Positions 1,989-40,710 of a stretch of DNA of 64,000 nucleotides are shown one piece after another. The notes below the pieces were generated by a model that worked only from the letters and a program-made list of their open reading frames with translations, was not told where the DNA came from and did not search any database. How positions within the stretch are numbered: position 1 is the stretch's first letter; each line of letters opens with the position of its first letter. A program made the translations under genes and the position numbers. Source of the stretch: an uncultured Algibacter sp. (GTDB taxonomy: Bacteria > Bacteroidota > Bacteroidia > Flavobacteriales > Flavobacteriaceae); NCBI RefSeq assembly GCF_947495675.1, contig NZ_CANLZX010000007.1, positions 23,224 to 87,223 on the forward strand. Reading direction: 5' to 3'.

Positions 1989-3431
1989 TTACCTAGGAAT
2001 ATCATTTTGCAAGAATGGCTTATCCCTTGGAAATTGTTTTTCTAAAAGCATTTTCATTCTTTTTTCAACTTTCTTATATTTTATATTTCCAGATAAATTA
2101 ACATAAGATAAAAGGCTGTTTTTATGCTCGTATAATTCGGCTTGCAAAACCTCATTAGTTTGAGAATTTCTCCATTCTGTATAACGCCACTCGCCATCTG
2201 TTGCCGTACAACCCATTATTTTTTTTCCTCTAGCAAACACACTTGTTGCCACTTTATCCCATCTTTTTTTTGGATTATCAATTACAGAAAGTAAACTTCT
2301 TCCTTCCGATTTTGGATCTTGTAATCCACATAATTCAACTAAAGTTGGAAATATATCTACATTTTCTACTAAGGCATCAGATGATTTGCCAATAACTCTA
2401 TGTTTATAGCCTGTTTCTCTACTAATAATTAACGGAACTCTTACATCAATTTCTAGATTAGAATGTTTACACCAAGCTCCATATTCACCTATTTTATATC
2501 CATGATCGCTCATAAAAATAACCATAGTGTTTTTACGTAAATCTAATTTTTCTAGAGTATTCATGATTTTACCAATTTGAGCATCGATAAAACTAACAGA
2601 TGCGTGATAACCATGAATTAAAGTTTGGGTTAAATCATCATCTAAATCGCCTTCTTTGGGTATTCCATAATATCCCCTTAGTTCTCCCCAATTAGTTAAT
2701 GCTAATCTGTAAGCATCTTCAGGTTTTTTTCTTGAAGGAATTTTGAAATTATCTTTATTATGTAAATCCCAATATTTTTTTGGAGCATTAAATGGTAAAT
2801 GGGGTTTACTTAAACCTACAAACATCAAGAACTTATCATCTTTAATTTTGTGCAATGTTTCTATGGCATATTTTGAAACACGACCATCTTTATAAGCCTC
2901 ATCTTCTACATCTGCATCTTCGTAAGCAGGGCCTTTAACAGATTTTTTACCTTGCTTTTTTAATTTCTCTATTAAAGCTAAGTTGTCTGGCTTTAAATAG
3001 CTATTTGGCTCTTTCTCATAAAAATTCGTCCAACTTTCTTTATCATCATGACCATGATGATATACTTTACCAATACTTACCGTTTTATACCCATTAGCCT
3101 TGAATAATTGTGGCATGGAAATTACATTTTTATGAATTTTCCGAAATGGTGTAAAAATACTATATATACCCAGAGACTCTGGACGTAATCCTGTTAACGT
3201 ACTCATTCTAGAAGGACCACAAATAGCTTGTTGTGTATAAGCTTTATTAAACATTACTCCTTCTGAAGCTAGCTTATCTATGTTTGGTGTTATTGCTGTT
3301 TCGCTTCCGTAGCATCCTAATTCTGCTCTTAAATCATCAACGTAGAAAACCAATATATTTGGTCGTTCTGCTTGAGCTGAAGTTGATAAAAAATAAAATA
3401 CTGTTAAAAATAAAAATATATAATTTTTCAT
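1989..3431 (-). CDS. S1 sulfatase, iduronate-2-sulfatase-like, secreted
   Basis: 480 aa with a signal peptide. [12 protein letters not shown]...[36 protein letters not shown] closely parallels the human IDS active-site region. The C-x-P-x-R formylglycine motif is present. Confidence 0.9.
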
Positions 3432-3471: not shown

Positions 3472-5160
3472 TTATTTTTTAGCTATTTGCTTAGCTTTGG
3501 TATAGCTACCTGTCCTATTTAACTCATCATAAATTCGCATTTTCCAATAATAGGTTTTGCCTTGTTCTAATTTAAGATTACTAGGTTTTTCAGCTTCATT
3601 TGAAGTGCTTTGTATATTAGCACTATTCCAAACATCTCCTATATTGTTATTAATGTTTTCTTGAGAAGAGGCTACTAAAATTTGATATGCTGTTTGTTTT
3701 TGTATGGTGTTTGACAAATCCCAACTGAATGCTTTACCATCAAATCTATTTTCTACAATAGTTAAGGCATAAGGGTCTTTATACTTTTCTATTAAATTTT
3801 CACACTTTGCTCTTAAGTTATTTAACACGTCTTTGTATTGCTTATCATTAACAAGGTTGTTTGTTTCTCTTGGATCGTCTTTTAAATTGTATAATTCTTC
3901 AATAGATTTATTATCAACATATCTAAAATACTTCCAGTCTTTAGTTCTAACCCCTTCACTTGGTGCTATATTTTTAAAGTCCCATAAATGTTCTATTAAA
4001 ACCGTATCTCTTTCTAAATTCACTTGTTTTTCATCAATAAAAGGTTTTAAACTTTTTCCGTGCCAACTTGCAGGTGCTTCTACGTTAGCAAAATCTAAAA
4101 TTGTAGATGGTATATCTATATTTAATGCCATGGCATCAACATCTTTATGTTGTTTATTCCTTGGGTCGTAAATAATTAAAGGTACTTTTAATGAGTTATC
4201 GTACATTAACCATTTTCCAGAAATTTGTCTTTCGCCTAAGAAAAACCCATTATCTCCCATTAAAACAATAACTGTATTATCTGCTATGCCTTTAGCTTCT
4301 AATTTTGTTCTTATTTTGGCTATTTCGTTATCAATTCCAGCTAGCATTCTAAAATAGCCTTTAACACTATGTTGATATTTCTCTGGTGTATCATAACGCC
4401 AATACCAACGTAAACGATTAAAACCATCCTTTACCAATTGTGGTAGCTTATTATAATCTTCATCAGAAGAAATATTAGCATCTGGCACGGTTACATTTTC
4501 TAAAACATGATTGTTTTCTTCTTGCCAAAAGTATTGCTCTACAGTATTATCGCTTGCATGAGGTGCGCTAAAACTCAGTTGTAAACAAAACGGCTTATCT
4601 GTTGGTGCTTTGTCTAAAAACTGTAGTGCTTTTTCTCCTGTATAACGTGTTAAGTGCACCGTATCTTTACCTAAAGTTTTGTAGTAATAACTGGTAATAT
4701 CTTTACGGTCGTATCTTAAATCGTAATTTTCATGAACATCATAAAGTGAGTCTAGTTTTTTATATTTTACACCAAACTTCCCATATAAACCAGTATAATA
4801 TCCAGCTTTTTTAAGCAGTCGTGGATATGCGTTTTCCATATATTCGTCTTTCATAACTCCTGTTGTAAAACTGTAGTTATGTGTTCGCTCTTGTAAGCCA
4901 CTAAATATACTAGCTCTACTTGCTGCACAAATTGGTGTTGTCGCAATGGTATTTTCAAAAAACACACCATTTTTTGCTAGTTTATCCATTTCTGGAGTGT
5001 GTGCTAAATCATTTCCAGCATAGCCTAAAGCATCCCATCTTTGATCGTCTGTTAGGATAAAAATAATATTAGGTTTTTCTTCTTTAATTTCAGAAGACTT
5101 GTTATTATTACAAGCTAGAAATGACAATCCTATTATTGATAATGTTAGTAATTTATTCAT
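3472..5160 (-). CDS. S1 sulfatase fused to a C-terminal GH78-N-terminal-like Ig/FN3 module
   Basis: 562 aa. [14 protein letters not shown]...[13 protein letters not shown] gives a C-x-A-x-R motif. The last ~90 aa ([22 protein letters not shown]...DVWNS...[12 protein letters not shown]) align with the N-termini of the four GH78 proteins in this window. Confidence 0.85.
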
Positions 5161-5195: not shown

Positions 5196-6695
5196 TTACT
5201 TTACTGGTTTTGGTGATTGTACAACTCCCTTGCCTACTTCAAATTCCCAATGTGGAACAGCTGGCTTTTTCTTATCAAATGTGTAGTTGTATTTTTTGAG
5301 ATAATAATCTCTTGATTTAAATTCATCTCCAATTTGAGCTAATTTCCCATTCAATTTATTATCTAATTCTAATTGAATTGTTTTAAACTCAGGTTTACCT
5401 AACAAATTATTCATTTGGTAAGGATCTGTGACATTATCAAAAAACATACTTGGGCCATTAGGTGTTCTTGCATAGGTGTATTGTTTGGTTCTAATGGCTC
5501 GATATGGTAAACTACTGTAATTGCCTGCAAAAGGAGCAACACTCATTACTAATGCTACTCTATCTGCACTCGAATCAGGATTCTTTATTAGTGCTGTTAA
5601 ATTTTCTCCTTCAATATCTTGTGGAATTTTTATGTTAGACAACCCTAACAACGAAGGTAAAATATCAGGCGTGTTTATAGGTGCATTTATAATTGCACCT
5701 TTTTGCTTATCTATTCCTGGATAGCTTATTAAAAATGGGACTTTTATAGATTCATCCCATGCGCGCTGTTTCTGAAAAGGTCTAACATCATGTGCCCCCA
5801 TCATTTCGCCATGGTCGGCAGAAAAAACTACTATAGTATTATTTAATATATCAAGTTCTTTTAATTTATCTAAAACGGTTCCAATGGCTTCATCGGTTGC
5901 GGTTGCATGTGCATAGTAACCTTGCAATTCTTCACGACTTCTATCTTTAAACTTTTCAGCAACATTTGGGTTTAAGGTTAAAGATTCTGGCGGGTACAAA
6001 TCCTTATACTTTTTAGGCGCATTATCGTGCGGAAAATGTGGTGTTGCAATTGAAATGAATGCTAAAAAAGGTTTGTCATCTTTTGCATGCTCTGTTATAT
6101 ATTGATTGGCATCTTTAACAATTGCAAATGGCGAATACTCTTTCCAGTATTTTATCTCAGGATTATCATTATCATAATACGGCATTTTGGTGTAATTATG
6201 TGAGCACTCTAGAGCCTTCCAATAGTCAAAACCTTGGCGTCTTTCTTTTGGAGTGTAATTTAACCGTCCATGACCATCTAAATGCCATTTGCCCCAATAG
6301 GCAGTGTTATAACCTGCTTCTTTGTAAATTTCTGCCATTGTTAATTCTTCAGATGGCAAATACAAGTCATTAACAAACATACCTGTTGTTGTTGGAAACT
6401 TACCTGTTAATAATGCTGCTCTATGCGGTGTACAAACTGGCATTACAGATACGGCATTTGTAAAATTAACCGACGCTTTTGCAAACGCATCTAAATTGGG
6501 TGTTTTTACATCAGTATTCCCTGCGTATCCTAAAGCAGCCCCTCTCCATTGATCGGTTAGAATGTATACAATGTTTGGTTTTCTAGATACCTCTTTTGAA
6601 TTTTCTGATAATGACTCAGATTTTGTTTCTTTTTTACAACTTGATAAAGTAACTACTGTTAAAAATAGAGCTATCGAAAATAATTTGATTTTCAT
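5196..6695 (-). CDS. S1 sulfatase (lipoprotein), paralog of 56501..58000
   Basis: 499 aa with lipobox LSSC. PNIVYILTDQWRG...MPVCTPHRAALLTG gives a C-x-P-x-R motif. DHGEMMG lies in the metal/active-site region. Confidence 0.9.
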   Translation of the reverse strand: MKIKLFSIALFLTVVTLSSCKKETKSESLSENSKEVSRKPNIVYILTDQWRGAALGYAGNTDVKTPNLDAFAKASVNFTNAVSVMPVCTPHRAALLTGKFPTTTGMFVNDLYLPSEELTMAEIYKEAGYNTAYWGKWHLDGHGRLNYTPKERRQGFDYWKALECSHNYTKMPYYDNDNPEIKYWKEYSPFAIVKDANQYITEHAKDDKPFLAFISIATPHFPHDNAPKKYKDLYPPESLTLNPNVAEKFKDRSREELQGYYAHATATDEAIGTVLDKLKELDILNNTIVVFSADHGEMMGAHDVRPFQKQRAWDESIKVPFLISYPGIDKQKGAIINAPINTPDILPSLLGLSNIKIPQDIEGENLTALIKNPDSSADRVALVMSVAPFAGNYSSLPYRAIRTKQYTYARTPNGPSMFFDNVTDPYQMNNLLGKPEFKTIQLELDNKLNGKLAQIGDEFKSRDYYLKKYNYTFDKKKPAVPHWEFEVGKGVVQSPKPVK

Positions 6696-6713: not shown

Positions 6714-7685
6714 TTATTTAATTTTTTGAACCCCTTCTTTTGTGGCGTAAATTTCTTGTATTGTTCCGTCTGCGTTATAATATAAATATTCGATACAGGT
6801 ATTTCTTCTAAATTTTGTACCTCCATTCCAACCTTGCCAATGGTAGAAGAAATAGTTTTGTCCTTTATATTCTACTATAGAATGATGATCTTGTCTTTGT
6901 TTTGGGTTAATCGCTCCTTTATACTGAAATGGTCCGTAAGGACTATCTCCCATAGCATAAAAACCTCCTAAACCTGCATTATAAGAATAGTAATACTTTC
7001 CTTTATATTTATGCATATAACTGGCTTCAAAGAAATTTTTAGCTCCATACTCTATAGCTCTAGGGGTTTCAGCTAATTCTAAAAGGTTGTCTTTTAATAA
7101 CGCCATTTTTGGTTCTCTAACACCCCAATACAAATACGTTTTCCCATCTTCATCAGTAAAAATACAAGGATCCAACCATTGTCCTTCAACACCTTCAATC
7201 CAACCTATATCTTTAAATGGTCCTTCAGGCACATCACTAACAGCAACACCACATCTCATATCATCTTTAGAACCTTTTACAGAATGCGGATACAATAAAT
7301 AATACTTATTATTTTTATAAATGGCTGTAGGTGCCCACATCCATCCTTTTGCACCCCACGGGATATTCTTAGAATGTAATACTTCTCCGTGGTCTTTCCA
7401 ATTTACCATATCTGTTGATGAAAAGGCATGGTACCCATCCATGGAATCATAGAATGTAGCATCTTCCATATCCTGAGAGGTGTACATCCATACTTTTCCA
7501 TCTTTCCATACATGTGCTGAAGGATCTGCAGTACGAATATGACGAATTACTGGATTGTTATTTACTTTTTCAATTGAAACTTCTTGCTGTTCTGTTTCTG
7601 TTACTTTTGTGTCGTTAGATTTACAGCTAATTACTATAGAAAGAACTAACAATAAAGTCTTTATTTTTCTGGCACTTACTCTCAT
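6714..7685 (-). CDS. GH43 family glycoside hydrolase (five-bladed propeller; xylosidase/arabinofuranosidase-like)
   Basis: 323 aa. RTADPSAHVWKDGKVWMY carries the general-base Asp context, LDPCIF the second Asp, and FFEASYMHKYKGKYYY the acid Glu context. Confidence 0.8.
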   Translation of the reverse strand: MRVSARKIKTLLLVLSIVISCKSNDTKVTETEQQEVSIEKVNNNPVIRHIRTADPSAHVWKDGKVWMYTSQDMEDATFYDSMDGYHAFSSTDMVNWKDHGEVLHSKNIPWGAKGWMWAPTAIYKNNKYYLLYPHSVKGSKDDMRCGVAVSDVPEGPFKDIGWIEGVEGQWLDPCIFTDEDGKTYLYWGVREPKMALLKDNLLELAETPRAIEYGAKNFFEASYMHKYKGKYYYSYNAGLGGFYAMGDSPYGPFQYKGAINPKQRQDHHSIVEYKGQNYFFYHWQGWNGGTKFRRNTCIEYLYYNADGTIQEIYATKEGVQKIK

Positions 7686-7714: not shown

Positions 7715-9724
7715 CTAATTATTACCGCTTATGTAATCCAATAATATCGCTTTTACATCTTTTACTGTGCCTTGTTTTAGTCCATTTTTTGTATTCGCAC
7801 CAGTTATCCAATATAATATCATACCAGCATCTGAGCAATCCCACTTTCCTTTTTGAAATTTAACCACATCATCAACCTCAGCCATTTTACCATATAACCA
7901 TACTTGTTGTAACCTTGGGTCTTTATGGTCTCTAGCCCAATCCCACTCTGCAATATTAACTTTAAGTTTTATGTTCTGGTCTGGAATCCTAACTTCTTCA
8001 ACTCCAAAATCTAAAATTTGCTGCCATGTGTAAAAATCTCCCGCATCATCGTTAGCAGGGTGGTGTGTTATTACTTTTACATATTTATGTTTGTCTTTAG
8101 AACTCGCATCAAGTGCAAAACCAATTATATCCGGTTCGCCTGCTTCTATAATCCAAAGTGGGTCTTCAGCTGTTGATGCGTTAATGGCTTTAGCTAAATC
8201 TTTAGTAGTTTCATCTATATTCCATTTTGCATCTAAAAATTTAATCCCATCAAAACCACCCCATCGTCTTGCTGTAACATCGCAAACACTTTGCATAAGG
8301 GCATGACGTTCCATTTCTGCTTTTTCAGAAATTCTGTTAACACGAACAATATCACAACTATGAGAGTAGTGTACCAATGTGTTTTCTAAACCTGAGGCTC
8401 TTAATAAGGCTAAGGTAATGGCTGTACCACCTAAATCATCAGGGTCGGGGGAGTTACCATCAGCAACAACAGCAATACGACCTTTAGGCGCGTTTATCTC
8501 TGGCTTTGTATTTGGTAACACTTTTAGCGCTCCATTATAAGGTGTTTTTATAACATCTTTTCCTTTGCCAACTGGGGCAAAAATAATACCCGACCAGCGT
8601 GCTCTTGCCCATTCTTTTCCGTCTGCACTTCCAATTTTGGCAATGACCGTGATTTTATCGCCTTTTTTAAACTTTATATTTTCCCAGAGGGCGTTGTTAC
8701 TTTCTCCTTCTTCAAATAGATCTTTGGTTAATGGCGGTTTAAACGTTCCTAATTTTTTATCGTTGATTCTTATAGTAAATTCTGATTGTCCATCATTTTC
8801 TCCAACAGCAACAAATACCAAATCATAGTTTCCATTTTTAAACGTGAAAGGTGTTGTTGTTTGCGCTTCTTTTTGCTTGTTTGGATTAATCCCTAGCCAT
8901 TTACCTCCAGCGTGTTTATAAAACCCTGTGCCTTTAATTGGAAAATCATCAATAGGTAGGGTTTTATTTTCAATATTAGAAGCTGCTATTTGTTTGTAAT
9001 ACGATTGTAAAGGCCAAAGCGTGGTTACTTTTAAACCTTCGCCTTTTGGTGTGTAAGTACTGTCTTTGGTTAAAATGAATTTATCAAACTCAAAACCATC
9101 CTCACGCATACTAAATTGAATATCGTGAGTACCAGCTTTATCTATATCTAAATAAATTTCTTTTGGCAAACCGCAATGCACTTCTTTTGTTCTTTGCTTA
9201 CTCTCCCAAGTCCATTTATTTTTTCCTTCGCACCACTGCATGCGCTGCCCGTGCTCTGGCCACTCTCCATTTAATCCAACATGTAAACCATTATCCTCAC
9301 TCCCTGTGCTAAATGCACGCACCCAAACGTAATAGCGTCCTGGATTACTAAAACTAACTTTATAATGCAAGATACCCATTTCACCTGCCTTATTGGAAAA
9401 GTTTTCGCCTTGGACTAGCTTATCGGAATGTGTTATTCTTGTATCAGGTAATATTTCGACGTAAGTATTATTACTTGCATTGATGTGATGTGGAGCGTCT
9501 TCATCACTACCTACATTCGATACAGCATTCTTTGAAGTGATATACCATTGTCGTAGTTCTGAATTGCTCTGTTTATTGAAGTATTCAGCTTCAACAGCAA
9601 CCATACCGTTATTTTCTTGAAATATAACTTTGTTATCAACAATAGGCGTGTTGAATTTTGTGGACTGAGCGTTCAAAACTAAACTTGATACGATTAGCAA
9701 AAACGATACTAATTTTATTTTCAT
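7715..9724 (-). CDS. Secreted three-domain protein of unknown function: two CBM-like beta-sandwiches plus a C-terminal nucleoside-hydrolase-like (DUF1593-type) domain
   Basis: 669 aa with a signal peptide. The N-terminal module NGMVAVEAEYF...YYVWVRAF...DGFEFDKFIL resembles the module in 39763..40710. The C-terminal part reads GRIAVVADGNSPDPDDLGGTAITLALL, an Asp-cluster motif at a Rossmann-like strand end. Confidence 0.55.
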   Translation of the reverse strand: MKIKLVSFLLIVSSLVLNAQSTKFNTPIVDNKVIFQENNGMVAVEAEYFNKQSNSELRQWYITSKNAVSNVGSDEDAPHHINASNNTYVEILPDTRITHSDKLVQGENFSNKAGEMGILHYKVSFSNPGRYYVWVRAFSTGSEDNGLHVGLNGEWPEHGQRMQWCEGKNKWTWESKQRTKEVHCGLPKEIYLDIDKAGTHDIQFSMREDGFEFDKFILTKDSTYTPKGEGLKVTTLWPLQSYYKQIAASNIENKTLPIDDFPIKGTGFYKHAGGKWLGINPNKQKEAQTTTPFTFKNGNYDLVFVAVGENDGQSEFTIRINDKKLGTFKPPLTKDLFEEGESNNALWENIKFKKGDKITVIAKIGSADGKEWARARWSGIIFAPVGKGKDVIKTPYNGALKVLPNTKPEINAPKGRIAVVADGNSPDPDDLGGTAITLALLRASGLENTLVHYSHSCDIVRVNRISEKAEMERHALMQSVCDVTARRWGGFDGIKFLDAKWNIDETTKDLAKAINASTAEDPLWIIEAGEPDIIGFALDASSKDKHKYVKVITHHPANDDAGDFYTWQQILDFGVEEVRIPDQNIKLKVNIAEWDWARDHKDPRLQQVWLYGKMAEVDDVVKFQKGKWDCSDAGMILYWITGANTKNGLKQGTVKDVKAILLDYISGNN

Positions 9725-9730
9725 TTTTAA

Positions 9731-12505
9731 TTATTTAAGTTTTGATTGAAATTCGTATGATCCAGCTTGTACTTCTAATACGAATGCATCCTTCTCAGTA
9801 TTAGTTAATTTTACGTTTGAATTATCTTCAACGTTAGTATCGTTTAATAAGAGTGCTTGTTTCGTATTAGCTAGAATAACAACTTTTGCTGTGGTATTTG
9901 GAGGCACAACCACTTCTAATTTAAAATCATTACCTTTTATTTCCCAAGTAGAAGCTACTTTTCCATAAGGCGTATTTAAACTAGCTGCCGCTGATGTTAA
10001 TGGTTCTTTTGGTACAGGCGCTATTCTAATAGTTTTGTAACCAGCCTCTAAAGGTGCAATACCTGCAATACGTTCGTACATCCATTCACCAATAGCACCA
10101 TAAGCATAATGGTTTAGACTATTCATTTTTTGAGCATTAAAACCATCTTTTTTACTATAACTGTTCCAACGTTCCCAAATAGTGGTTGCGCCTTGATTTA
10201 TAGAATAAAACCATGACGGATAAGTTTCATTAAATAATAATTTGTACATCAAGTCTAATTCACCAGTTGCATCTAAAACTTCGTATAATAAAGGGGTACC
10301 TAAGAATCCGGTTCTTAAATGATTATCGGCTTCTGCTATTTTTCTTAATAAATGTATTTTAGCATTTGCTTTATTCTCTTCAGAAAGTAAACCAAAGGCT
10401 AAAGCTAGTAAATAAGAGGTTTGTGTTTCTGCGACATCTTTTACTTTTCCGTTATTAAAAAACTTGTTTTCAAAAGCATTTGCAACCGTTTTATAAATGG
10501 CATTATATTTTTCAAATTCTTCAGTTTTACCTAAAGCTTTAGCTGTTTTTGCTGTTAAGTTTGCAGAATGCGCAAAAAATGCAGTTCCTATTAAGCTTTT
10601 AGATGTATCTCCTTTATTGTCGCCATTTTCTGGAAGCGGCTGTAACCAGTCTGCAAAAAAGCCCATAGAAGAAATGTTATTTTTAGTAACACTTTCGTGG
10701 TATTTCACCCAGCCTTTCATGGTTTCAAAATTCTCTTCTAGGATTTTTTTATCTCCTGTTCTTAAGTAAATTTTCCAAGGTATAATGGTACATGCATCTC
10801 CCCAACCTGCACTTACTTTATTGTTGTATAAAACATCTGGAACAACCCAAGGAATAGCTCCATTATCGCTTTGTGATTCGCGAACACTTTGCATCCAACT
10901 TGCCCAAAACTTATATACATCGGCATTAAACATAGACGCTGGTGCAAATACTTGTGCATCTGCAGTCCATCCCATACGTTCGTCACGTTGCGGGCAATCG
11001 GTTGGGATATCAAAAAAGTTTCCTCTTAATCCCCAAACGATATTGCTTTGTAATTGATTTAACTTTTCGTGAGACGATGTAAAGGTTCCGTTTTCTTCAA
11101 AATCTGAATATTGCACTAATCCTGTTACCCAATCTTTTGATGGGGTTTTTGAAGTATCAAATCCGCTTAATTCTACATATTGAAATCCGTGAAATGTAAA
11201 TTTTGGCATCCATTCAATCACACCGTCCTTTGAAGCTGTATAATAATTAGTTGACTCCGCACTTCTATAATTTTCAGTATAAAACGTACCATCTGGAGAT
11301 AACTTTTCAGCAAATCGAACTTTTAATGTTTGCCCTTTTTTCATTGGCACTTTTAGCAAAGGCACACCTACCATATTCTGTTGAAAATCAAAAATAGCAG
11401 CTCCATCTTTTTCAATAATAGCTTTTGTTGCTAATTCAATTTTAGATTTAACTGTGGTATGTCTTTTAGGTTCTAGCCTTATGTCTTCCGTAACAGGAAA
11501 TGTTTTTACAGACTCCCATGTTTTATCATCAAAATTAGTAGTGGTCCAATTTGGCATTTCTAAATTGGCATCATAGGTTTCTCCATCGTAAATTTCAGAA
11601 ACTCGAATCGGTCCAGTTGTTGTTCCTTTCCATGTGTCATCAGATAAAATCATTTCTTTAGAACCATCTTTCATAATTAATTCTAATTGAAACAACATTT
11701 TAGGAGTTTCTGTATCGCTCCAATATGATTCCATCCAACCTAAACGTCCTGAATGCCATCCTGCAGCAACCTCAACACCTATGGTGTTTTGTCCAGATTC
11801 TATTAAATTGGTAACATCGTAAGTAATCGTTTCAATACGTTCTTTATAAGGCGTATATCCGGGAGGCATTACATCATCACTAACATCTTCTCCATTTATA
11901 GCCACATCAAAAACCCCTTTTGCGGTAATGTATAATCTTGCGGAAGCAACATCATTAGACAATTTGAAACCTTTTCTTAAGTATTGCGGTCTATGAATAA
12001 TATTATTTTGACTTCCTAAAACCTTTTCTTTTTTCGTGTCTAAACCAATCCATTTGGCTTTCCAATCATTATTATTCAATAAACCCAACTCAAAATGATT
12101 GATTTCACTCCATTTTGAAGCTTCATTATCTTGATTCCAATATTTAACTTGCCAATATACTTTTTGACGTGATTGTAAAGCTGCTCCTTCATACTTGATC
12201 CAAGTAGATTGTGCTGTTTGCTGTTTCTCAGAGTTCCATAAATCTGCATGATCAGGTAACAAATCTGGACTACTGGCCACTACTATTTGATATGCTGACT
12301 GACTTAAAACACCTTCTGAAACTGGCAACTGCCATGAAAAACTTGGCACTTTATCATAAAACCCTAATGGATTTTCAAACCCTTCTGAAATGGTTAATTT
12401 TTGAGCTTCTGCTATAGTTGCTTGTTCTTTACATGACGTAAAGCTCAAACAAACACTAGCACATAACGCATATATAAAATGTTTAAAGTTCATTTTTTTT
12501 AACAT
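9731..12505 (-). CDS. GH78 alpha-L-rhamnosidase (downstream copy of a tandem pair)
   Basis: 924 aa. The N-terminal module reads FSWQLP...QSAYQIVVASS...DLWNS...VYWQVKYWN. DIPTDCPQRDERMGWTADAQVF is the (alpha/alpha)6 catalytic-domain signature. The protein is colinear with 12509..15307. Confidence 0.9.
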   Translation of the reverse strand: MLKKMNFKHFIYALCASVCLSFTSCKEQATIAEAQKLTISEGFENPLGFYDKVPSFSWQLPVSEGVLSQSAYQIVVASSPDLLPDHADLWNSEKQQTAQSTWIKYEGAALQSRQKVYWQVKYWNQDNEASKWSEINHFELGLLNNNDWKAKWIGLDTKKEKVLGSQNNIIHRPQYLRKGFKLSNDVASARLYITAKGVFDVAINGEDVSDDVMPPGYTPYKERIETITYDVTNLIESGQNTIGVEVAAGWHSGRLGWMESYWSDTETPKMLFQLELIMKDGSKEMILSDDTWKGTTTGPIRVSEIYDGETYDANLEMPNWTTTNFDDKTWESVKTFPVTEDIRLEPKRHTTVKSKIELATKAIIEKDGAAIFDFQQNMVGVPLLKVPMKKGQTLKVRFAEKLSPDGTFYTENYRSAESTNYYTASKDGVIEWMPKFTFHGFQYVELSGFDTSKTPSKDWVTGLVQYSDFEENGTFTSSHEKLNQLQSNIVWGLRGNFFDIPTDCPQRDERMGWTADAQVFAPASMFNADVYKFWASWMQSVRESQSDNGAIPWVVPDVLYNNKVSAGWGDACTIIPWKIYLRTGDKKILEENFETMKGWVKYHESVTKNNISSMGFFADWLQPLPENGDNKGDTSKSLIGTAFFAHSANLTAKTAKALGKTEEFEKYNAIYKTVANAFENKFFNNGKVKDVAETQTSYLLALAFGLLSEENKANAKIHLLRKIAEADNHLRTGFLGTPLLYEVLDATGELDLMYKLLFNETYPSWFYSINQGATTIWERWNSYSKKDGFNAQKMNSLNHYAYGAIGEWMYERIAGIAPLEAGYKTIRIAPVPKEPLTSAAASLNTPYGKVASTWEIKGNDFKLEVVVPPNTTAKVVILANTKQALLLNDTNVEDNSNVKLTNTEKDAFVLEVQAGSYEFQSKLK

Positions 12506-15518: not shown

Positions 15519-17969
15519 TTATCTAATTATAAGTTTAGAATGGAAAACCCTTTGATTATCGTCAACTATTTTTATTAAATATAATCCCGATTTAAATCGA
15601 CCATTATTATCAATATCAATTCTATTTGAATTTATTGTATTTTGATAAATAATTTGTCCAAGCATATCGTTTATTACAATAGTAGCTTTATTTACGCCAT
15701 TAAGTAAAACGGTAAATTGATTGTTTGCTGGATTAGGAAAAACCTTCGCTGAAAAAGCATTGGCTTCTACTTCTGGTGCACTTAGCGTTGTAGATTCTAC
15801 TACCCATTTAGACCTGTCGTCGGAATTTCCAATATGTTCAATTATACCGTTGGCGTTGTGATATATATAATTTGAACCATTTCGTGTTCGAAATTGATAT
15901 GTACCATCACTACTGTTATAAATAACGGTAAACTGTTTATCCGAATCTTCTCTTGGTGCAGAAAACCCTGTATTGATAATATCATTTGGAGGATTGCCAG
16001 CTGCTCGTAATATTCCCCTATCAGATCTTTTACTTTCTATATTATAATATTCTCCAGCTTTTACAAATTCCCATTCCTTATCGCCAGAAGCACTATTATC
16101 GCCTGTATCACTTTCAACGACATCTGAACCTACAGAGTATAAATATTTGCCTGTAACAAAATTCTTAATTCTATAAATATCACCTGTTAGGTCTGTTGGA
16201 TCGAATTCACTAAAATTAACAGTATTTTCAATTGAAGATACTGTTTCATTATTCACATTATACGCAATAGCTTGAAGTGTATAGTCTCCTTCAGCAGTAG
16301 GTGACCAATCTATAGCATAAGGCGCACTATTGTCTTCACCAAAATAAGAACCATTTACCCAAAATTCAACCTTAGATATACTGCCATTTTCATCAACTGC
16401 ATTCGCCGAAACTTGAACTGTTTCTCCTATATCAAAAGATGCACCGTTGGATGGTGAAGTTAAAGATACTCTAAACGGTTCTTGCACAATATCTAAATCA
16501 ATAATCTGAAGATAAAGTGGCTGCGCATTACCCGATTTATCTTCCATTAAGTAATAGTATGCTTTACCATTTTCTATGTGGACAACGCCGTGGTCAAACT
16601 GTTTTCCACTAGTAGCCTCATAAACCTTCTCAAAATTATCAGTTCCGCCTTCTGCTTTGTACACAACTACCCTACCGTTATTTAAACCTACTGTATAAAC
16701 ATTAGGCCCTGAGGTGTAAAAAGATCCTGTTATAGATTTTTCTGTAGTTGTAAACTCTGTAGCACCTGCTGGCTTGTAGGTGTGTAAATTTTTAGTAACG
16801 TTATTATCCAAATCTCGTACCTGACTCTTAATATGTACATCCCCATTGTTGGTAACGGTCCAATCAAATCCCCCTACAATGTATACTCTATTTGGATTTG
16901 TTGTCTCTACGTAATCTCCAGGTTCCATGACTTTCATAAAATCGGCATCCCATAATGGAAGACTAAAAGATTCTCCTTTATAATTCTTCCAACCCGTAGC
17001 AGCCGTTTGATCATCTGAATAGGCATAATACACACCGTTTTGATAAAGATATTTATCATCATTGTTTTGTGACCTACGTTGAAAACCTAAACGAAACTTA
17101 CCGTTTACATATTTCATATCACCGTAAAGCCCCCAGTTATAATCAATTCCTGGTTGGCTTCTAGCATTTAACCTATTAAAATCTGTGAAATTACCCCAAT
17201 CTCCTGTATTGGCATCGTATTTTATAAACTTAAACATACCATTGTTATTACCACCTTCCCGCATAAGCATGAAAAGGTCACCATCATCATTTTGGAAAAA
17301 CCGTGGATAGGTCAATGCAACAAACTCAGATTGAGCAGCAGTACCTGGCATTCTTAAATGTTTATAATCATCATTAGAATTTTTAACAAACTTATCTAAT
17401 GTAAAATCTGCATCTGGAAGAGATGCCGCATTTTTAACTGAATAAGAATATCTAAAATAATCGTTAGCTAAACTTCCATTTGATGGTCTACTGGCACTGT
17501 AAGCATGCATATCATATAACAAATGAATTGTACCATCTAAAGGACTTATACCAACAGCTATGGTATTATGAGATTCTCCAATCCAGTATTGATTTTGATA
17601 TCCTGTATGCCTATGAGGAAACTCTATAGTTGCCATTGTACCGGTTACTGTATTGTAACGGGTAAGCATAACATGACGATCTGCTTTACCACCACGATAC
17701 CACGTCATAAAAACATAATCACCATAGGTTTTTATGGCATCTCCATGAGCAGAAATATTACGTCCAAAGAAAAAATCATATGGTGCATTATCTCCTGTAT
17801 TAGAGGTGCCACTAGAAACTTTACTACCATCAAAATGGAGACCTAAATCTGTGATTTTAACTTCCGTTTCTAGAATAACTTGAGCTAAACTGGTTTGAAA
17901 TAAACACAGCGTAAGAAGAACACTTAAGTTTTTTATTAAGAAACTTAAGTTTGGGGTATTTTTTTTCAT
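15519..17969 (-). CDS. Secreted multidomain protein: BNR4-like beta-propeller + Ig-like domain + ricin-type beta-trefoil + T9SS C-terminal sorting domain
   Basis: 816 aa. The propeller region is His-rich: FPHRHTGYQNQYWIGESHNTIAVGISPLDGTIHLLYDMHAYS. The Ig-like segment reads VSLTSPSNGASF...APYAIDW. The trefoil-like segment reads YRIKNFVTGKYLY...QFRTRNGSNYIY...SKWVVE. The T9SS CTD reads KVFPNPANNQFTV...GLYLIKIVD. The gene is bounded by an operator-like element upstream and a terminator downstream. Confidence 0.65.
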   Translation of the reverse strand: MKKNTPNLSFLIKNLSVLLTLCLFQTSLAQVILETEVKITDLGLHFDGSKVSSGTSNTGDNAPYDFFFGRNISAHGDAIKTYGDYVFMTWYRGGKADRHVMLTRYNTVTGTMATIEFPHRHTGYQNQYWIGESHNTIAVGISPLDGTIHLLYDMHAYSASRPSNGSLANDYFRYSYSVKNAASLPDADFTLDKFVKNSNDDYKHLRMPGTAAQSEFVALTYPRFFQNDDGDLFMLMREGGNNNGMFKFIKYDANTGDWGNFTDFNRLNARSQPGIDYNWGLYGDMKYVNGKFRLGFQRRSQNNDDKYLYQNGVYYAYSDDQTAATGWKNYKGESFSLPLWDADFMKVMEPGDYVETTNPNRVYIVGGFDWTVTNNGDVHIKSQVRDLDNNVTKNLHTYKPAGATEFTTTEKSITGSFYTSGPNVYTVGLNNGRVVVYKAEGGTDNFEKVYEATSGKQFDHGVVHIENGKAYYYLMEDKSGNAQPLYLQIIDLDIVQEPFRVSLTSPSNGASFDIGETVQVSANAVDENGSISKVEFWVNGSYFGEDNSAPYAIDWSPTAEGDYTLQAIAYNVNNETVSSIENTVNFSEFDPTDLTGDIYRIKNFVTGKYLYSVGSDVVESDTGDNSASGDKEWEFVKAGEYYNIESKRSDRGILRAAGNPPNDIINTGFSAPREDSDKQFTVIYNSSDGTYQFRTRNGSNYIYHNANGIIEHIGNSDDRSKWVVESTTLSAPEVEANAFSAKVFPNPANNQFTVLLNGVNKATIVINDMLGQIIYQNTINSNRIDIDNNGRFKSGLYLIKIVDDNQRVFHSKLIIR

Positions 17970-18390: not shown

Positions 18391-20106
18391 TTATTTAGTT
18401 TTATCAGTTTCAATATAAGGTATTGCTCCAGGATAACCCATTGGTACATTTGAAAAATACTTTTTGTCTTCTATTTTCTTAATTTGTTTATATGGTATCA
18501 TTTCATAATTTATATCATATAATACTAATTTCTCTTTAATTGATTTCTTGAACCACCTTGGACTTATTTGTATTGATTTATTTTCTTTTTTTAATAATAA
18601 AAGTTCTTCTTTAACTTTTAAAGTAGTTAAAGCTTCCCAACGAATATGAATAAATAATACAATTAATGCATTTATCATAATTAAAAAAATGAGTCCATAA
18701 TTAAATGCTTTTTTTTCTTTAAAAGAGTATAATCCAATAAGCATAGGTATAATAGGAATTAGCCATATTTGAGGAGCAAAACGGGCCCACCAAAAATGCT
18801 TACTTATTAGCAAAGAACTAATTATGGCACTATATGCTATAAGCACTAGAAGTCTTTTACTTTTATAATGCCTCAATAAATAAAACAAATAGAGTATTGA
18901 AAGAATTAAGATACCACTAAAAAAAGGACCAAAACCTGCAATTCTAGTTTCATGAAAACGGTAGGCTTTCCAACTTGAAATACTAGATATAAAAGGTATT
19001 GCTAATTCTGCATTATCTTGATTATCGTAAGGGGCATTTCCTGGTTTACCAAAATGAGCATAAAACAAACGAAACGGTAGTGATTTACCTTTCATATTTA
19101 AAGGTGTTTCATGCTTTTCATTCCCGTCTTTTCCTTGTTCTAGTTGACTTAGATATTCTTTAGATCCTAAAATGGGATATAATGGATTCCCTCTTTTATG
19201 CAGGTTTGAAACATAAGGATTGAATCCAAAAACAATTAGCCCTAATACAATTGCTAAAGTATGAAACCCTATATAGTTAAAAATCAAAGCTTTATTTTTT
19301 AATAGAATATACATAAATCCAAAGCCTGAAAAAATAATTAAAAATACTATACCTGTAAACTTTACATTGAGTAATCCAACTATTGCCATTATACCAATTA
19401 AGAGGTGTAAAAAATTATATTTACGAATTACAGAAAATAGAGCTGCTATATAAATACTGAGATACAAAAAAAGAAGACCATCTACTAAATAAGTTGCAAT
19501 TTCGCTCCACACTACAGGATTTAAAATAATTAAACTAGAAACAATAAAACTATTTCGTTTACTTAATCTAAACTTTCTTGATACTATATAAAAAAATAAG
19601 CTAGCAGCTATTAATACAATAAAATTAAGTGCTTTACCGGCTTCAATAAAACCAAAAGTACTGTATATAGATGCAGCCATATACCAGGATCCTTTAGGAA
19701 AATGAATAATTGATAAATCGTTACTTCTATTAAATTTTCTGATAGGTTCTGAAAAAGGGTTCCACCCTTCGGCTAAATTATAAATAGCAGACTGATGATA
19801 CCATTGTCCATCCCACGATAAATCCAAGAACAATCCTGAAACCAATAAAGAAAATACAATAAAAAAAAAACTTAGTAAAACCGAAACCTTAACTGTTCTT
19901 TTATCAATTTCATATTTCTTTCCTAAAATAAAAAGAACGATAACAGCCAAAATAACAGATAATGGAAATGTCCATGGTAAAAAAAAATGCCCAATAATAA
20001 AACTTAATAAAACCAATAAATGATTTAAACAAATAGTCAGTAACAGTATAAGGCAACAGCTTAATGTTATTTTATAACCAAAAGAATATTCATATTCTTT
20101 ATTCAT
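18391..20106 (-). CDS. Polytopic integral membrane protein of unknown function (12 or more hydrophobic helices; GT-C / O-antigen-polymerase-like architecture)
   Basis: 571 aa dominated by long L/I/F-rich segments. A loop, LDLSWDGQWYHQSAIYNLAEGWNPF, follows the early helices. I recognise no MFS/SSS/RhaT signature. The gene sits 3 nt upstream of rhaM. Confidence 0.6.
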   Translation of the reverse strand: MNKEYEYSFGYKITLSCCLILLLTICLNHLLVLLSFIIGHFFLPWTFPLSVILAVIVLFILGKKYEIDKRTVKVSVLLSFFFIVFSLLVSGLFLDLSWDGQWYHQSAIYNLAEGWNPFSEPIRKFNRSNDLSIIHFPKGSWYMAASIYSTFGFIEAGKALNFIVLIAASLFFYIVSRKFRLSKRNSFIVSSLIILNPVVWSEIATYLVDGLLFLYLSIYIAALFSVIRKYNFLHLLIGIMAIVGLLNVKFTGIVFLIIFSGFGFMYILLKNKALIFNYIGFHTLAIVLGLIVFGFNPYVSNLHKRGNPLYPILGSKEYLSQLEQGKDGNEKHETPLNMKGKSLPFRLFYAHFGKPGNAPYDNQDNAELAIPFISSISSWKAYRFHETRIAGFGPFFSGILILSILYLFYLLRHYKSKRLLVLIAYSAIISSLLISKHFWWARFAPQIWLIPIIPMLIGLYSFKEKKAFNYGLIFLIMINALIVLFIHIRWEALTTLKVKEELLLLKKENKSIQISPRWFKKSIKEKLVLYDINYEMIPYKQIKKIEDKKYFSNVPMGYPGAIPYIETDKTK

Positions 20107-27232: not shown

Positions 27233-28633
27233 TTAATCAAAATTCCTTATTCCAGGAACAATTTTTATATCCAATATCCCTTCGGTTTTTGGCCATTTTA
27301 ATACTATTAATTTTTGACTTTTGGAATCCCAAATAAAATCTGTCGGATCAATTTCATTAGACAATTTATAAATTTCAAGTCCAACATTTTTTAAAGGATT
27401 ATAATATAAGACTGACTCTTGACCTATAAATATTGAAAAACCATCAGGATAATGTCTATTAGCACCAATAAATATTTTTGATGCACCTTTGCTATTATCT
27501 GGTTTTATTTTAACATCTAAACTTCTAGTTGCATGATTAAATAAAAAGGATTGAATATCTCCTGCAATAGATTGAGGAAAAGGTCTAGAAATCACATCTG
27601 TAATATACTTTCTTTCTACTGTACCTGCATCTGTTTTATCACTAAATATCGACCAAGTTGAAGGGCCACCTGGAAGAAAATTTTGCATGGTTCTATTTCC
27701 TAAAAACCAAGCTTTTATAGAACCTACACCCATCTTATCGAAAACTTCGGCAGTTCGGATATAAAGCTCTCTGTATTTTAATTGCCCTAGCTTGCCCTCT
27801 ATTATAGTATCGGTTGTTGCAAATGTTGGAAACCCCCATTCTCCAATTAAAATTGGAGCTTTTAACATATCTGATTCCTTATCAAATCGATCCATATTAC
27901 GCTTTATAAAGCTTATATCATTTTGGTATATATGCGGTGCAAAAATGATATTTTTTCTATTAATTGGCTTTGTAATTTCTGAGTATTGATTATTATCTAT
28001 TTTCTCTCCTTTATTCATAAAAATAGACTGAAATAATATCATTTTATCTTCATTTATTTTTTGACTTTCATCAATTATTTTTTGATATAAAGGAATAAGG
28101 TATTTGTTTGTTAAATTTTCATAAGAAATATCCATGGTTAACTTTCTTGGTTCATTAACCACATCGTATCCTAACACAGAAGATGCATTGGAATATCGGT
28201 TCCAAATTACTTTCCATGCATCTATATAAGTTTTATATTCATTCTTTTTATTTTGCCAGAATTCTTCCCAGACAAACTTATCTACACCATAAACTGTCAT
28301 TTTAAAAACCGTTTTTATACCATGGTATTTACCTAAAGCCACTAAAGAATCTAATTTAACCAAATAATCTGGCTCAAGCTTACCACCTGGAAAATTACTA
28401 AGTTTACCTAACTCCAACCGAATAACTTGGGTGTTAGCTCCCATTCGCACCATACGTACGTAGTCGTCGCTATTAAAAAACACTTCACCTTTATGGTCGT
28501 TGGTGTTTACTACAAAACCTCTGGGTATAATATGTTTTCCCATATCATCTCTAAGGCCATGTTTTATTTGTGAAAACGTGTGAAGTGAGCTTAAAAAACA
28601 AAAAAACAGAATGCATCTAACTTTTACGGACAT
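27233..28633 (-). CDS. Clan GH-A (GH5-like) glycoside hydrolase with a C-terminal beta-sandwich
   Basis: 466 aa. LGYDVVNEPR carries the NEP acid/base motif, FAPHIYQ the H-x-Y motif, and ILIGEWGFP the nucleophile Glu. It is the first gene after an operator-like element. Confidence 0.6.
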   Translation of the reverse strand: MSVKVRCILFFCFLSSLHTFSQIKHGLRDDMGKHIIPRGFVVNTNDHKGEVFFNSDDYVRMVRMGANTQVIRLELGKLSNFPGGKLEPDYLVKLDSLVALGKYHGIKTVFKMTVYGVDKFVWEEFWQNKKNEYKTYIDAWKVIWNRYSNASSVLGYDVVNEPRKLTMDISYENLTNKYLIPLYQKIIDESQKINEDKMILFQSIFMNKGEKIDNNQYSEITKPINRKNIIFAPHIYQNDISFIKRNMDRFDKESDMLKAPILIGEWGFPTFATTDTIIEGKLGQLKYRELYIRTAEVFDKMGVGSIKAWFLGNRTMQNFLPGGPSTWSIFSDKTDAGTVERKYITDVISRPFPQSIAGDIQSFLFNHATRSLDVKIKPDNSKGASKIFIGANRHYPDGFSIFIGQESVLYYNPLKNVGLEIYKLSNEIDPTDFIWDSKSQKLIVLKWPKTEGILDIKIVPGIRNFD

Positions 28634-39762: not shown

Positions 39763-40710
39763 TTATAATTTAATAATCTTTTTTAACAATGTCGTTTTAC
39801 TATCTTTTGTGGATATAAAATAAATTCCACTAATTAAATCGTTAATATCAATAATTTGATTTCTGGATGTACTTGTATATTCACGAACGGTAGCACCATG
39901 TATATTAGATATAATAAGTTTGGAGTTAAGTGGTAAATTTTTAAAATTCACAATACCATTGGTTGGGTTTGGGTACACTTTAATTTCTTCTAAATTACTT
40001 TCAGAGCCTATTGATAATGAACCATTGTAGCATGAAGATTCGCTATTTGATAAATTGAAAGCAACACTATCAGAAATACCATTTAATCTTAACACCATTC
40101 TATCTAATAGACAATAAGAAGACCTTGCATCTAAAGTTATTTTATATATCCCAGGGTTGTTAAAAGTAACAAAGACTCTATGAGAATCGCCATCATTAGT
40201 ATTGGCAACAAATCTCCACTCCTGCGTATTTCCAAAAATTTTAAAAAAACCTAATTCTGATTTTCCTTCCGGGCAATCATTATTTGCATCGGTTTCACAA
40301 GCAGGTCTAGGGATAACTCTATGACCAGATTTTATACCATAATAATCATCGGCATCAATTTTTAACCAAGAATCGTTGTGCTCTCCATTAGATGTTCCCA
40401 TATTTATTTTCATGTGCCAAGCAAATCTATAGGTACCAGGAGTATTTATTTTAATATTATAAACAATTGGAGCATTTGATAAGTTGTTAAAAGATTGTGG
40501 ACCATCCCAGTATATATAACCACTACCTGTATAACCAGAAACACTATTATCTATTTTCCAGTTTGGGTGATTTATTATACCGGACTCCATTTCAATTGTT
40601 AAAAGTCCGTTTTGCTCTTCAAATGGTAATGTACCATCACAGGCTGCTGTTTGTGCAAACACACCCATTGATAATATTAAAAGAAAAAGAAATGTAATTC
40701 TATTTTTCAT
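39763..40710 (-). CDS. Secreted CBM-like beta-sandwich protein with a T9SS C-terminal sorting domain
   Basis: 315 aa. NGLLTIEMESG...GYIYWDGP...GTYRFAWHMK...LLDRMVLRL resembles the N-terminal module of 7715..9724. The CTD reads KVYPNPTNGIVNF...SGIYFISTKD. It is the first gene after an operator-like element. Confidence 0.6.
   Translation of the reverse strand: MKNRITFLFLLILSMGVFAQTAACDGTLPFEEQNGLLTIEMESGIINHPNWKIDNSVSGYTGSGYIYWDGPQSFNNLSNAPIVYNIKINTPGTYRFAWHMKINMGTSNGEHNDSWLKIDADDYYGIKSGHRVIPRPACETDANNDCPEGKSELGFFKIFGNTQEWRFVANTNDGDSHRVFVTFNNPGIYKITLDARSSYCLLDRMVLRLNGISDSVAFNLSNSESSCYNGSLSIGSESNLEEIKVYPNPTNGIVNFKNLPLNSKLIISNIHGATVREYTSTSRNQIIDINDLISGIYFISTKDSKTTLLKKIIKL

Follow-up and report, generated by a model that had tools for sequence, protein, structure and literature searches.

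A secreted protein of an Algibacter ulvan-type utilisation locus carries a nucleoside-hydrolase-like domain that very probably belongs to an unnamed family

The window considered here is a stretch of 64,000 nucleotides from an uncultured Algibacter sp. (contig NZ_CANLZX010000007.1, positions 23,224 to 87,223), and those of its open reading frames (ORFs) that have a recognised family constitute an Algibacter ulvan-type utilisation locus. The gene set includes five GH78 and two GH106 members, GH2, GH3, GH39 and GH43 enzymes, many S1 sulfatases, SusC/SusD proteins and a PL28-type endo-ulvan lyase, and every one of the 30-odd long ORFs of the 64-kb window lies on the minus strand. Our subject is a secreted protein of 669 amino acids (aa) encoded in this locus, and above all its C-terminal alpha/beta domain, here called D3. 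An earlier note on this DNA, made from the sequence, had described the protein as having three domains and lying between a GH78 gene and a block of GH43 and sulfatase genes. The ORF list and its translation give an uninterrupted reading frame that contains the peptides quoted in that note (GRIAVVADGNSPDPDDLGGTAITLALL at residues 415–441 and NGMVAVEAEYF at residues 39–49) and place it on the minus strand, which the note had not given; the neighbours are as it described, all on the same strand (Table 1). The gene is genuine rather than a chance ORF, because its closest homologue, a ‘hypothetical protein’ of Algibacter aquimarinus, is 98% identical and 1746 homologues with E ≤ 1e-3 were found among the candidates examined.

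No lipobox Cys is seen in the sequence of the signal peptide and Pfam gave no match to Por_Secre_tail, the tail of the type IX secretion system (T9SS), and the protein is therefore probably periplasmic. The proposed division into three domains held up. Pfam returned only GH115_C (PF17829; residues 35–221, E 2.4e-8) on the 669-aa protein, and an NCBIfam scan and a PDB sequence search with the whole protein returned nothing meaningful. The N-terminal domains D1 and D2 were modelled together over residues 20–400 with AlphaFold2 (AF2; pLDDT 84.6), and both halves of the model are beta-sandwiches. Compared using VIA, a structural aligner independent of Foldseek, the D1 model matches the C-terminal domains of GH115 glucuronidases at Z 14.6–16.0 and the carbohydrate-binding modules (CBMs) of families 6 and 35 at Z 12–14 (CBM6E 13.9; CBM35/CBM6 12–12.7), and D2 (model residues 233–368) is closest to CBM36 (1ux7, 7ay3; Z 11.5–11.6). 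By these models the two domains have the fold of the CBM6/35/36 beta-jelly-roll group, and they are predicted to bind glycans; several CBM35s bind uronates through Ca2+. The paralogous module that the note had placed further along the window was recovered as well, as a distant relative of D1: hhalign of the D1 profile against that 315-aa protein and its relatives gives a probability of 97.3% (E 1.7e-11, 153 columns, 18% identity).

Table 1. Coordinates, in the window, of the 669-aa protein gene, its domains and motifs, and related or neighbouring genes
Feature	Position	Strand	Basis or remark
Whole gene, secreted protein	7715..9724	-	669 aa; stop codon 7715-7717
Signal peptide, residues 1-20 (MKIKLVSFLLIVSSLVLNAQ)	9665..9724	-	Read from sequence; type I
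D1, GH115_C / CBM6-35-like beta-sandwich, residues ~35-225	9050..9622	-	Pfam PF17829 and model
D2, CBM36-like beta-sandwich, residues ~245-385	8570..8992	-	AF2 model all-beta
D3, nucleoside-hydrolase-fold alpha/beta domain, residues ~413-669 (~260 aa)	7718..8488	-	AF2 and VIA
Asp cluster, D422-G-N424-S-P-D427-P-D429-D430	8435..8461	-	Directly after beta-strand 1 (DSSP of model); 97-99% conserved in 115 domains
DxSD motif, D629-C-S631-D632	7829..7840	-	207-210 residues past Asp cluster; D629 and S631 100%, D632 98% of 115 domains
GH78 alpha-L-rhamnosidase, upstream neighbour	9731..12505	-	Pfam; stop 6 nt before start codon of 669-aa gene
GH43, downstream neighbour	6714..7685	-	Pfam; 29 nt beyond stop of 669-aa gene
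S1 sulfatase, first after GH43	5196..6695	-	Pfam
S1 sulfatase, second after GH43	3472..5160	-	Pfam
S1 sulfatase, third after GH43	1989..3431	-	Pfam
PL28-type endo-ulvan lyase with beta-trefoil and T9SS tail	15519..17969	-	
315-aa T9SS cargo protein, distant D1 paralogue	39763..40710	-	hhalign; Por_Secre_tail

D3 was modelled from residues 400–669 with 34 diverse short relatives (AF2; pLDDT 94.8, pTM 0.93), and VIA was run against 48,161 PDB representatives. The best 13 chains all have the nucleoside-hydrolase fold (Z 15.0–16.8, ~211–243 residues aligned, model residues ~14–270), and the next, unrelated fold scores Z 7.2. These chains are archaeal, bacterial, protozoan, plant and yeast nucleoside hydrolases, XopQ, and 2YHG (Sde_0182 of Saccharophagus degradans), and Foldseek puts the same proteins at the top of its list. 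The fold assignment is firm because of the gap in Z and the agreement of Foldseek, and it bears out the likeness to nucleoside hydrolases and DUF1593-type proteins that had been suspected from the sequence. The best structural matches are inosine-uridine-preferring and related nucleoside hydrolases (PF01156, a family whose members include S. solfataricus 3T8I and E. coli RihA, RihB and RihC), at Z 15–16.8 with a root-mean-square deviation of 3.2–3.9 Å over 211–227 residues. The C-terminal domain of Sde_0182 (2YHG; PF07632, formerly DUF1593) is tied with these true nucleoside hydrolases (Z 15.2, 222 residues). The type III effectors XopQ/HopQ1 (4P5F, 7JLU), which have the same fold, score Z 15.3 and provide the top Foldseek match, but they are effectors of plant pathogens with an unrelated biology and without CBM-like modules.

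Profile methods place D3 outside the named families. No Pfam or NCBIfam model covers it, and Pfam has no match in any of 35 diverse members, in keeping with the earlier failure to assign a family; PF01156 (IU_nuc_hydro) and PF07632 gave no match at E ≤ 1 in these 35 members, and a search of the D3 profile against PDB sequences gave nothing meaningful. The PF07632 hidden Markov model (HMM) finds typical members in 15 of 151 Flavobacteriaceae genomes, with E down to 1e-117, and no match in five D3-bearing genomes; the PF01156 HMM has no match in three of these five, and its matches in the other two are unchecked against D3. The nearest named cluster in the ESM Atlas is PF07632 (score 0.92), and hhalign of D3 against 20 flavobacterial PF07632 proteins finds a weak similarity (probability 13%, E 0.0022) in which the motifs line up sensibly, the Asp motif of beta1 (‘GRIAxxADGNxxDxDD’) being paired with ‘KxRxIxLTDxxxxPDD’ and the strand-4 motif (‘PLWIIEAGEPD’) with ‘RPLWIxxWGGxN’. 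An exhaustive phmmer search over 1.84 billion cluster representatives (50% identity) delimits a family of at least 604 clusters when the limit is set at E ≤ 1e-3, of which 70 score E ≤ 1e-30, with divergence reaching 31–35% identity. In our reading D3 forms an unnamed family of its own within the nucleoside-hydrolase-like superfamily, with the Sde182 type as its nearest neighbour. Sde_0182 has a similar layout, in which binding modules and a beta-sandwich are followed by the nucleoside-hydrolase-like domain (PMC8910321). Both it and D3 are tied to carbohydrate metabolism and neither has an assigned function. The Sde182 type differs in that its PF07632 HMM is blind to D3 and in size, D3 having ~260 aa against proteins of 431–551 aa for most flavobacterial PF07632 members; D3 also has its own invariant set (DGNxxDxDD, H554, N558, DQN and DxSDAGM) and is a hallmark of ulvan loci. 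Literature searches on DUF1593, on ulvan nucleoside hydrolases and on nucleoside-hydrolase-like glycoside hydrolases found no paper on the D3 family.

The conserved residues of D3 were identified in 115 full-length, diverse domains drawn from representatives of 50%-identity clusters. R416, D422, N424, D427, D429, D430, H554, N558, D582, Q583, N584, D629, S631 and D632 are conserved in 86–100% of these, and at 85–100% the list also takes in G423, N515, S517, G529, W596, G634 and M635. About 17 polar residues are near-invariant (in DGNxxDxDD, H554, N558, DQN and DxSD), and within the 669-aa protein D3 is the most conserved part, with a mean identity of 77% as compared with 71% for D1, 70% for D2 and 37–53% for the linkers. 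In the model the conserved polar residues, except N515/S517 and W596, lie at or just past the C-terminal ends of strands 1, 4, 5, 6 and 7. Nucleoside hydrolases have their active site in a cavity where strands beta1 and beta4 end C-terminally, and on its floor two Asp of the DxDxxxDD motif and a third Asp ~230 residues downstream hold the Ca2+ that binds the 2'- and 3'-hydroxyls of ribose (PMC8910321). Judged by position relative to the strands, D3 carries a strongly conserved acidic and polar site where this fold binds Ca2+ and a sugar diol.

An Asp-rich loop follows strand 1 in D3 and in nucleoside hydrolases alike, and each has a conserved Asp ~210–230 residues further downstream. By eye, five motifs of D3 and RihB are colinear: VADGNSPDPDD with LDCDPGHDD, EAGEPD (AGPME in distant members) with VGPLSN, THHPAND with GGAYGTGN, IPDQN with GLDLT, and CSDAGMILY with VHDATCIGY, the second and last of these displaying the shared patterns ‘GP(L/M)(S/E)’ after strand 4 and ‘xDAxxxxxY’. 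DxSD would then correspond to the His-Asp pair found in nucleoside hydrolases, opposite ‘VHDATC’ of E. coli RihB, and this mapping would put Ser631 at the place of the leaving-group residue; the residue before D629 is variable among D3 members. D3 is unlike nucleoside hydrolases in its fingerprint (D-x-N-x-x-D-x-D-D as against D-x-D-x-x-x-D-D), in having Ser for His, Trp or Cys, in showing no detectable profile similarity to them, and in being secreted, fused to CBM-like modules and encoded in a polysaccharide locus.

The association of the gene with polysaccharide utilisation in other taxa, which the earlier note had set as a test, is borne out. Relatives are encoded in 273 species genomes, and the best 80 loci were taken with 10-kb flanks, the flanking families being called by comparison with the proteins of the window itself. 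These loci belong to Flavobacteriaceae, Saprospiraceae, Cyclobacteriaceae, Marinilabiliales-type Bacteroidia and one planctomycete. An S1 sulfatase is present in 71 of the 80 and GH78 in 47, followed by SusD (27), GH106 (25), GH2 and GH3 (23 each), DUF1080 (22) and PL28 (15); in 15 loci the gene directly upstream is a GH78 of the same type as in the window. The adjacent sulfatase is of several types across the 80 loci, and no single conserved sulfatase partner was found. The link to the ulvan lyase was measured in an even sample of 151 Flavobacteriaceae genomes, of which 21 have the D3 family, 10 its high-scoring ulvan-type form and 9 PL28. Eight genomes have both the ulvan-type form and PL28, that is 8/10 of the D3 carriers and 8/9 of the PL28 carriers (Fisher p = 7e-11, uncorrected for kinship), on the same contig and mostly 3–15 kb apart (52 kb in one genome). 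The ulvan-type D3 clade is thus a marker of ulvan loci, and D3 as a whole is very probably a domain of nucleoside-hydrolase fold from an unnamed family tied to such loci. Replacement of the unsaturated uronyl hydrolase by D3 is ruled out, genes of GH88/GH105 type being present on the same contig in all five of five genomes with D3 and PL28. In A. aquimarinus a uronyl hydrolase of GH88/GH105 type (323019-324029) lies on the same contig as the D3 gene at a distance of ~124 kb, and the ulvan set there may therefore exceed, or be separate from, the stretch that matches the window.

D3 occurs in proteins of very different sizes, the smallest being stand-alone forms of ~285 aa with a signal peptide and the largest having 1895 aa. 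Two adjacent genes, one for D1 and D2 (~415–430 aa) and one for D3 (~286–305 aa), take the place of the single gene in ~24 species, Algibacter sp. R77976 among them. In the five such loci inspected both genes begin with a start codon and a signal peptide of their own (in one example the genes are at 9968-11224 and 11268-12125), a case of natural gene fission or fusion inside a single family. Other forms are D1 with D3 (~510 aa, lacking D2) and D1-D1-D2 (~685 aa, lacking D3). In non-ulvan flavobacterial loci the D3 genes adjoin, or are fused to, small relatives of the 315-aa D1 paralogue, and in one distant member D3 is followed by GH115_C. The recurring unit is therefore a D1-type sandwich with D3, which suggests an obligate pairing of the two. 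In the wider family the fusion or domain partners of D3 are GH106 rhamnosidase, PL7 alginate lyase, Laminin_G_3, DUF5060 with Collagen_bind_2, CBM6/35 with a T9SS tail, beta-lactamase-like and CN-hydrolase domains, and stalks of immunoglobulin-like (Ig) domains with T9SS tails; the genomic contexts of distant members were read in 14 flavobacterial regions, and one locus combines SusC/D with a GH88-like gene and a GH29 fucosidase. Some T9SS cargo proteins begin with D3 and otherwise have Ig domains only, and elsewhere D3 accompanies CBM6/35 without any further recognised catalytic domain. D3 functions as an independent secreted unit. Fusion proteins from metagenomes include GH106 with a C-terminal D3 (1486 aa), PL7 with D3 (1018 aa), and an 893-aa protein in which DUF1080 (3-keto-disaccharide-hydrolase-like) is joined to a homologue covering 100% of the 669-aa protein.

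Our preferred reading, held tentatively when taken whole, is that the 669-aa protein is a probably periplasmic, modular accessory of ulvan degradation in which D3 is catalytic on a terminal sugar. D1 and D2 would hold an ulvan-derived oligosaccharide containing uronate and rhamnose, and D3 would be the working part. By analogy with nucleoside hydrolases, the site formed by DGNxxDxDD and DxSD would hold a Ca2+ that clamps two neighbouring hydroxyls of the terminal sugar, and D3 would act as a Ca2+-dependent enzyme that cleaves or modifies this sugar beside the GH78 rhamnosidases and S1 sulfatases. Binding of Ca2+ and of sugar, catalysis and the substrate are all conjectural steps of this proposal. 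We prefer a catalytic role because conservation is deep, because D3 is the best-conserved part of the protein, because stand-alone forms exist, and because D3 is the sole candidate catalytic domain in some architectures.

Several points weigh against this reading. No activity is known for any member of the D3 family. In active nucleoside hydrolases the last Ca2+-binding Asp is preceded by a His, Trp or Cys that activates the leaving group (PMC8910321), and the residue before D632 is Ser631, invariant in the 115 domains, with none of the three at that position. An hhalign comparison of the D3 profile with a thin profile of five nucleoside hydrolases (RihA, RihB, RihC and two others) gave a probability of 0.1%, both global and local, so that the residue-level mapping between D3 and nucleoside hydrolases is one made by eye; likewise, that the conserved residues form one pocket is suggested by the positions of the strands in the model. 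The related domain of Sde_0182 is inactive on nucleosides and has been proposed to be a sugar-binding module, and XopQ retains the Ca2+ site, has no nucleosidase activity and binds ADP-ribose (PMC8910321). To judge from XopQ, which keeps its site without known activity, conservation of a Ca2+ site would not tell binding from catalysis. Finally, no Formosa agariphila locus is among the best 80 of the 273 related loci, and the published ulvan pathway of this species is complete without such a protein (PMC8511951); any role of the 669-aa protein is therefore accessory or limited to certain ulvan structures.

The main rival, a real though minority possibility, would make D3 a sugar-binding module that depends on Ca2+ and has no catalytic role, and the whole protein a periplasmic or surface glycan-binding or chaperoning protein with three binding modules. 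The behaviour of Sde_0182, whose family is the nearest named one to D3 by the ESM Atlas and hhalign, with Z 15.2 to 2YHG, and whose layout is similar, speaks for it, as do XopQ, the Ser at the leaving-group position, and the fusion of D3 to catalytic GH106 and PL7 domains, as would be expected of a CBM. Yet the near-invariance of ~17 polar residues at 31–35% identity exceeds what is usual for binding modules, and D3 is better conserved than the sandwiches beside it. As a binding module, stand-alone D3 and the T9SS cargo proteins with D3 and Ig domains only would be left without a catalytic partner, and the protein lacks the lipoprotein signal of typical surface glycan-binding proteins.

It is improbable, in our view, that D3 is instead an enzyme other than a glycosidase, in which the Ca2+/Asp site would offset the charge of a uronate carboxylate or sulfate group during lyase, epimerase/dehydratase-like or esterase chemistry on uronate oligosaccharides. 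This would suit the uronate-directed company that D3 keeps (PL28 loci, the PL7 fusion and the GH88-like neighbour in a SusC/D locus) and the nearness of D1 to CBM35/CBM6 and the GH115 glucuronidase C-terminal domain, and H554, R416, D629 and S631, invariant in D3 and absent in nucleoside hydrolases, could do acid-base chemistry. The association with uronate enzymes is, however, indirect; D3 is fused also to GH106 rhamnosidase, beta-lactamase-like and CN-hydrolase domains, and we know of no enzyme of nucleoside-hydrolase fold with any such chemistry on uronates. That D3 is a true nucleoside or riboside hydrolase that scavenges ribose in the manner of the Bacteroides ribose utilisation systems is very unlikely: the fold is shared and there are Bacteroidetes in which true nucleoside hydrolases are encoded in SusC/D-linked loci (bioRxiv 10.1101/574913), but PF01156 misses D3 and profile comparison finds no signal, the fingerprint is altered and the leaving-group residue missing, the 64-kb ulvan locus has no ribokinase or nucleoside transporter, and the related Sde_0182 domain is inactive on nucleosides.

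Under the preferred, catalytic reading the question is how much would be new. In 2011 a structure (2YHG, PF07632) reportedly showed a domain of nucleoside-hydrolase type placed after CBMs and a beta-sandwich in a protein associated with carbohydrates. The idea of such a domain in a modular protein of this kind has therefore existed since 2YHG and is not categorically new. In the literature searched, what is new is the D3 family itself, its invariant motif set, its partnership with D1 and its tight link to ulvan loci. The earlier suggestion of an undescribed activity, from an N-ribohydrolase-like fold recruited to glycan degradation, thus stands as far as the family and any activity of it are concerned, which are undescribed, and falls as a new concept; catalysis itself is putative. 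To our knowledge the nucleoside-hydrolase fold does not act on polysaccharides and is used by no glycoside hydrolase or lyase. We regard it as possible, but on balance unlikely, that D3 founds a new enzyme family in which the Ca2+/diol machinery is re-used on an O-glycosidic bond or terminal sugar of anionic algal polysaccharides, in an obligate pair with a GH115_C-like sandwich (fused, adjacent or split). If true, this would mean a new CAZy family, a new fold among glycoside hydrolases and lyases, and a missing or alternative step of ulvan breakdown.

Ulvan is a major, under-used component of green-tide biomass, and its breakdown is being solved enzyme by enzyme. P29_PDnc (PL37) of the F. agariphila ulvan polysaccharide utilisation locus, the most recently studied ‘conserved hypothetical’ of such loci, turned out to have a new activity, as a first-of-its-kind oligosaccharide dehydratase (PMC8511951). 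The ulvan-type D3 tracks the ulvan lyase at about 1:1 in Flavobacteriaceae, has no name and bears a conserved, metal-site-like putative pocket, and could therefore reveal either an activity that is new or a new kind of domain for Ca2+-dependent glycan recognition. D3 is a good candidate for a new carbohydrate-processing function. It merits a Pfam or CAZy entry, through which hundreds of ‘hypothetical proteins’ in marine polysaccharide loci would become recognisable. PL37 has an (alpha/alpha)6 toroid with a beta-sandwich and 622 aa (PMC6168547). Its identity with the 669-aa protein is ruled out by fold and length; the D248/R300/K303 pattern is absent from the protein and from the whole window, and the two are not homologous.

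Several other genes of the window deserve mention. A 571-aa polytopic membrane protein without a Pfam match (18391-20106, minus strand) adjoins the PL28 lyase gene, and its membrane character rules it out as an equivalent of PL37. The S1 sulfatase at 3472-5160 (minus strand) has a C-terminal copy of the N-terminal Ig domain of GH78 (Ig_Rha78A_N, E 2.3e-9), an arrangement reminiscent of the GH78-S1_25 fusion P36 of F. agariphila. The SusC ORF at 30433-32916 (minus strand) has a GTG start and keeps just the end of the Plug domain (profile positions 73–107), and a 586-aa T9SS cargo protein (46964-48724, minus strand) has the tail as its sole recognisable domain. The protein encoded at 27233-28633 (minus strand) is weakly GH5-like, and its relatives recur in 20 of the 80 related loci.

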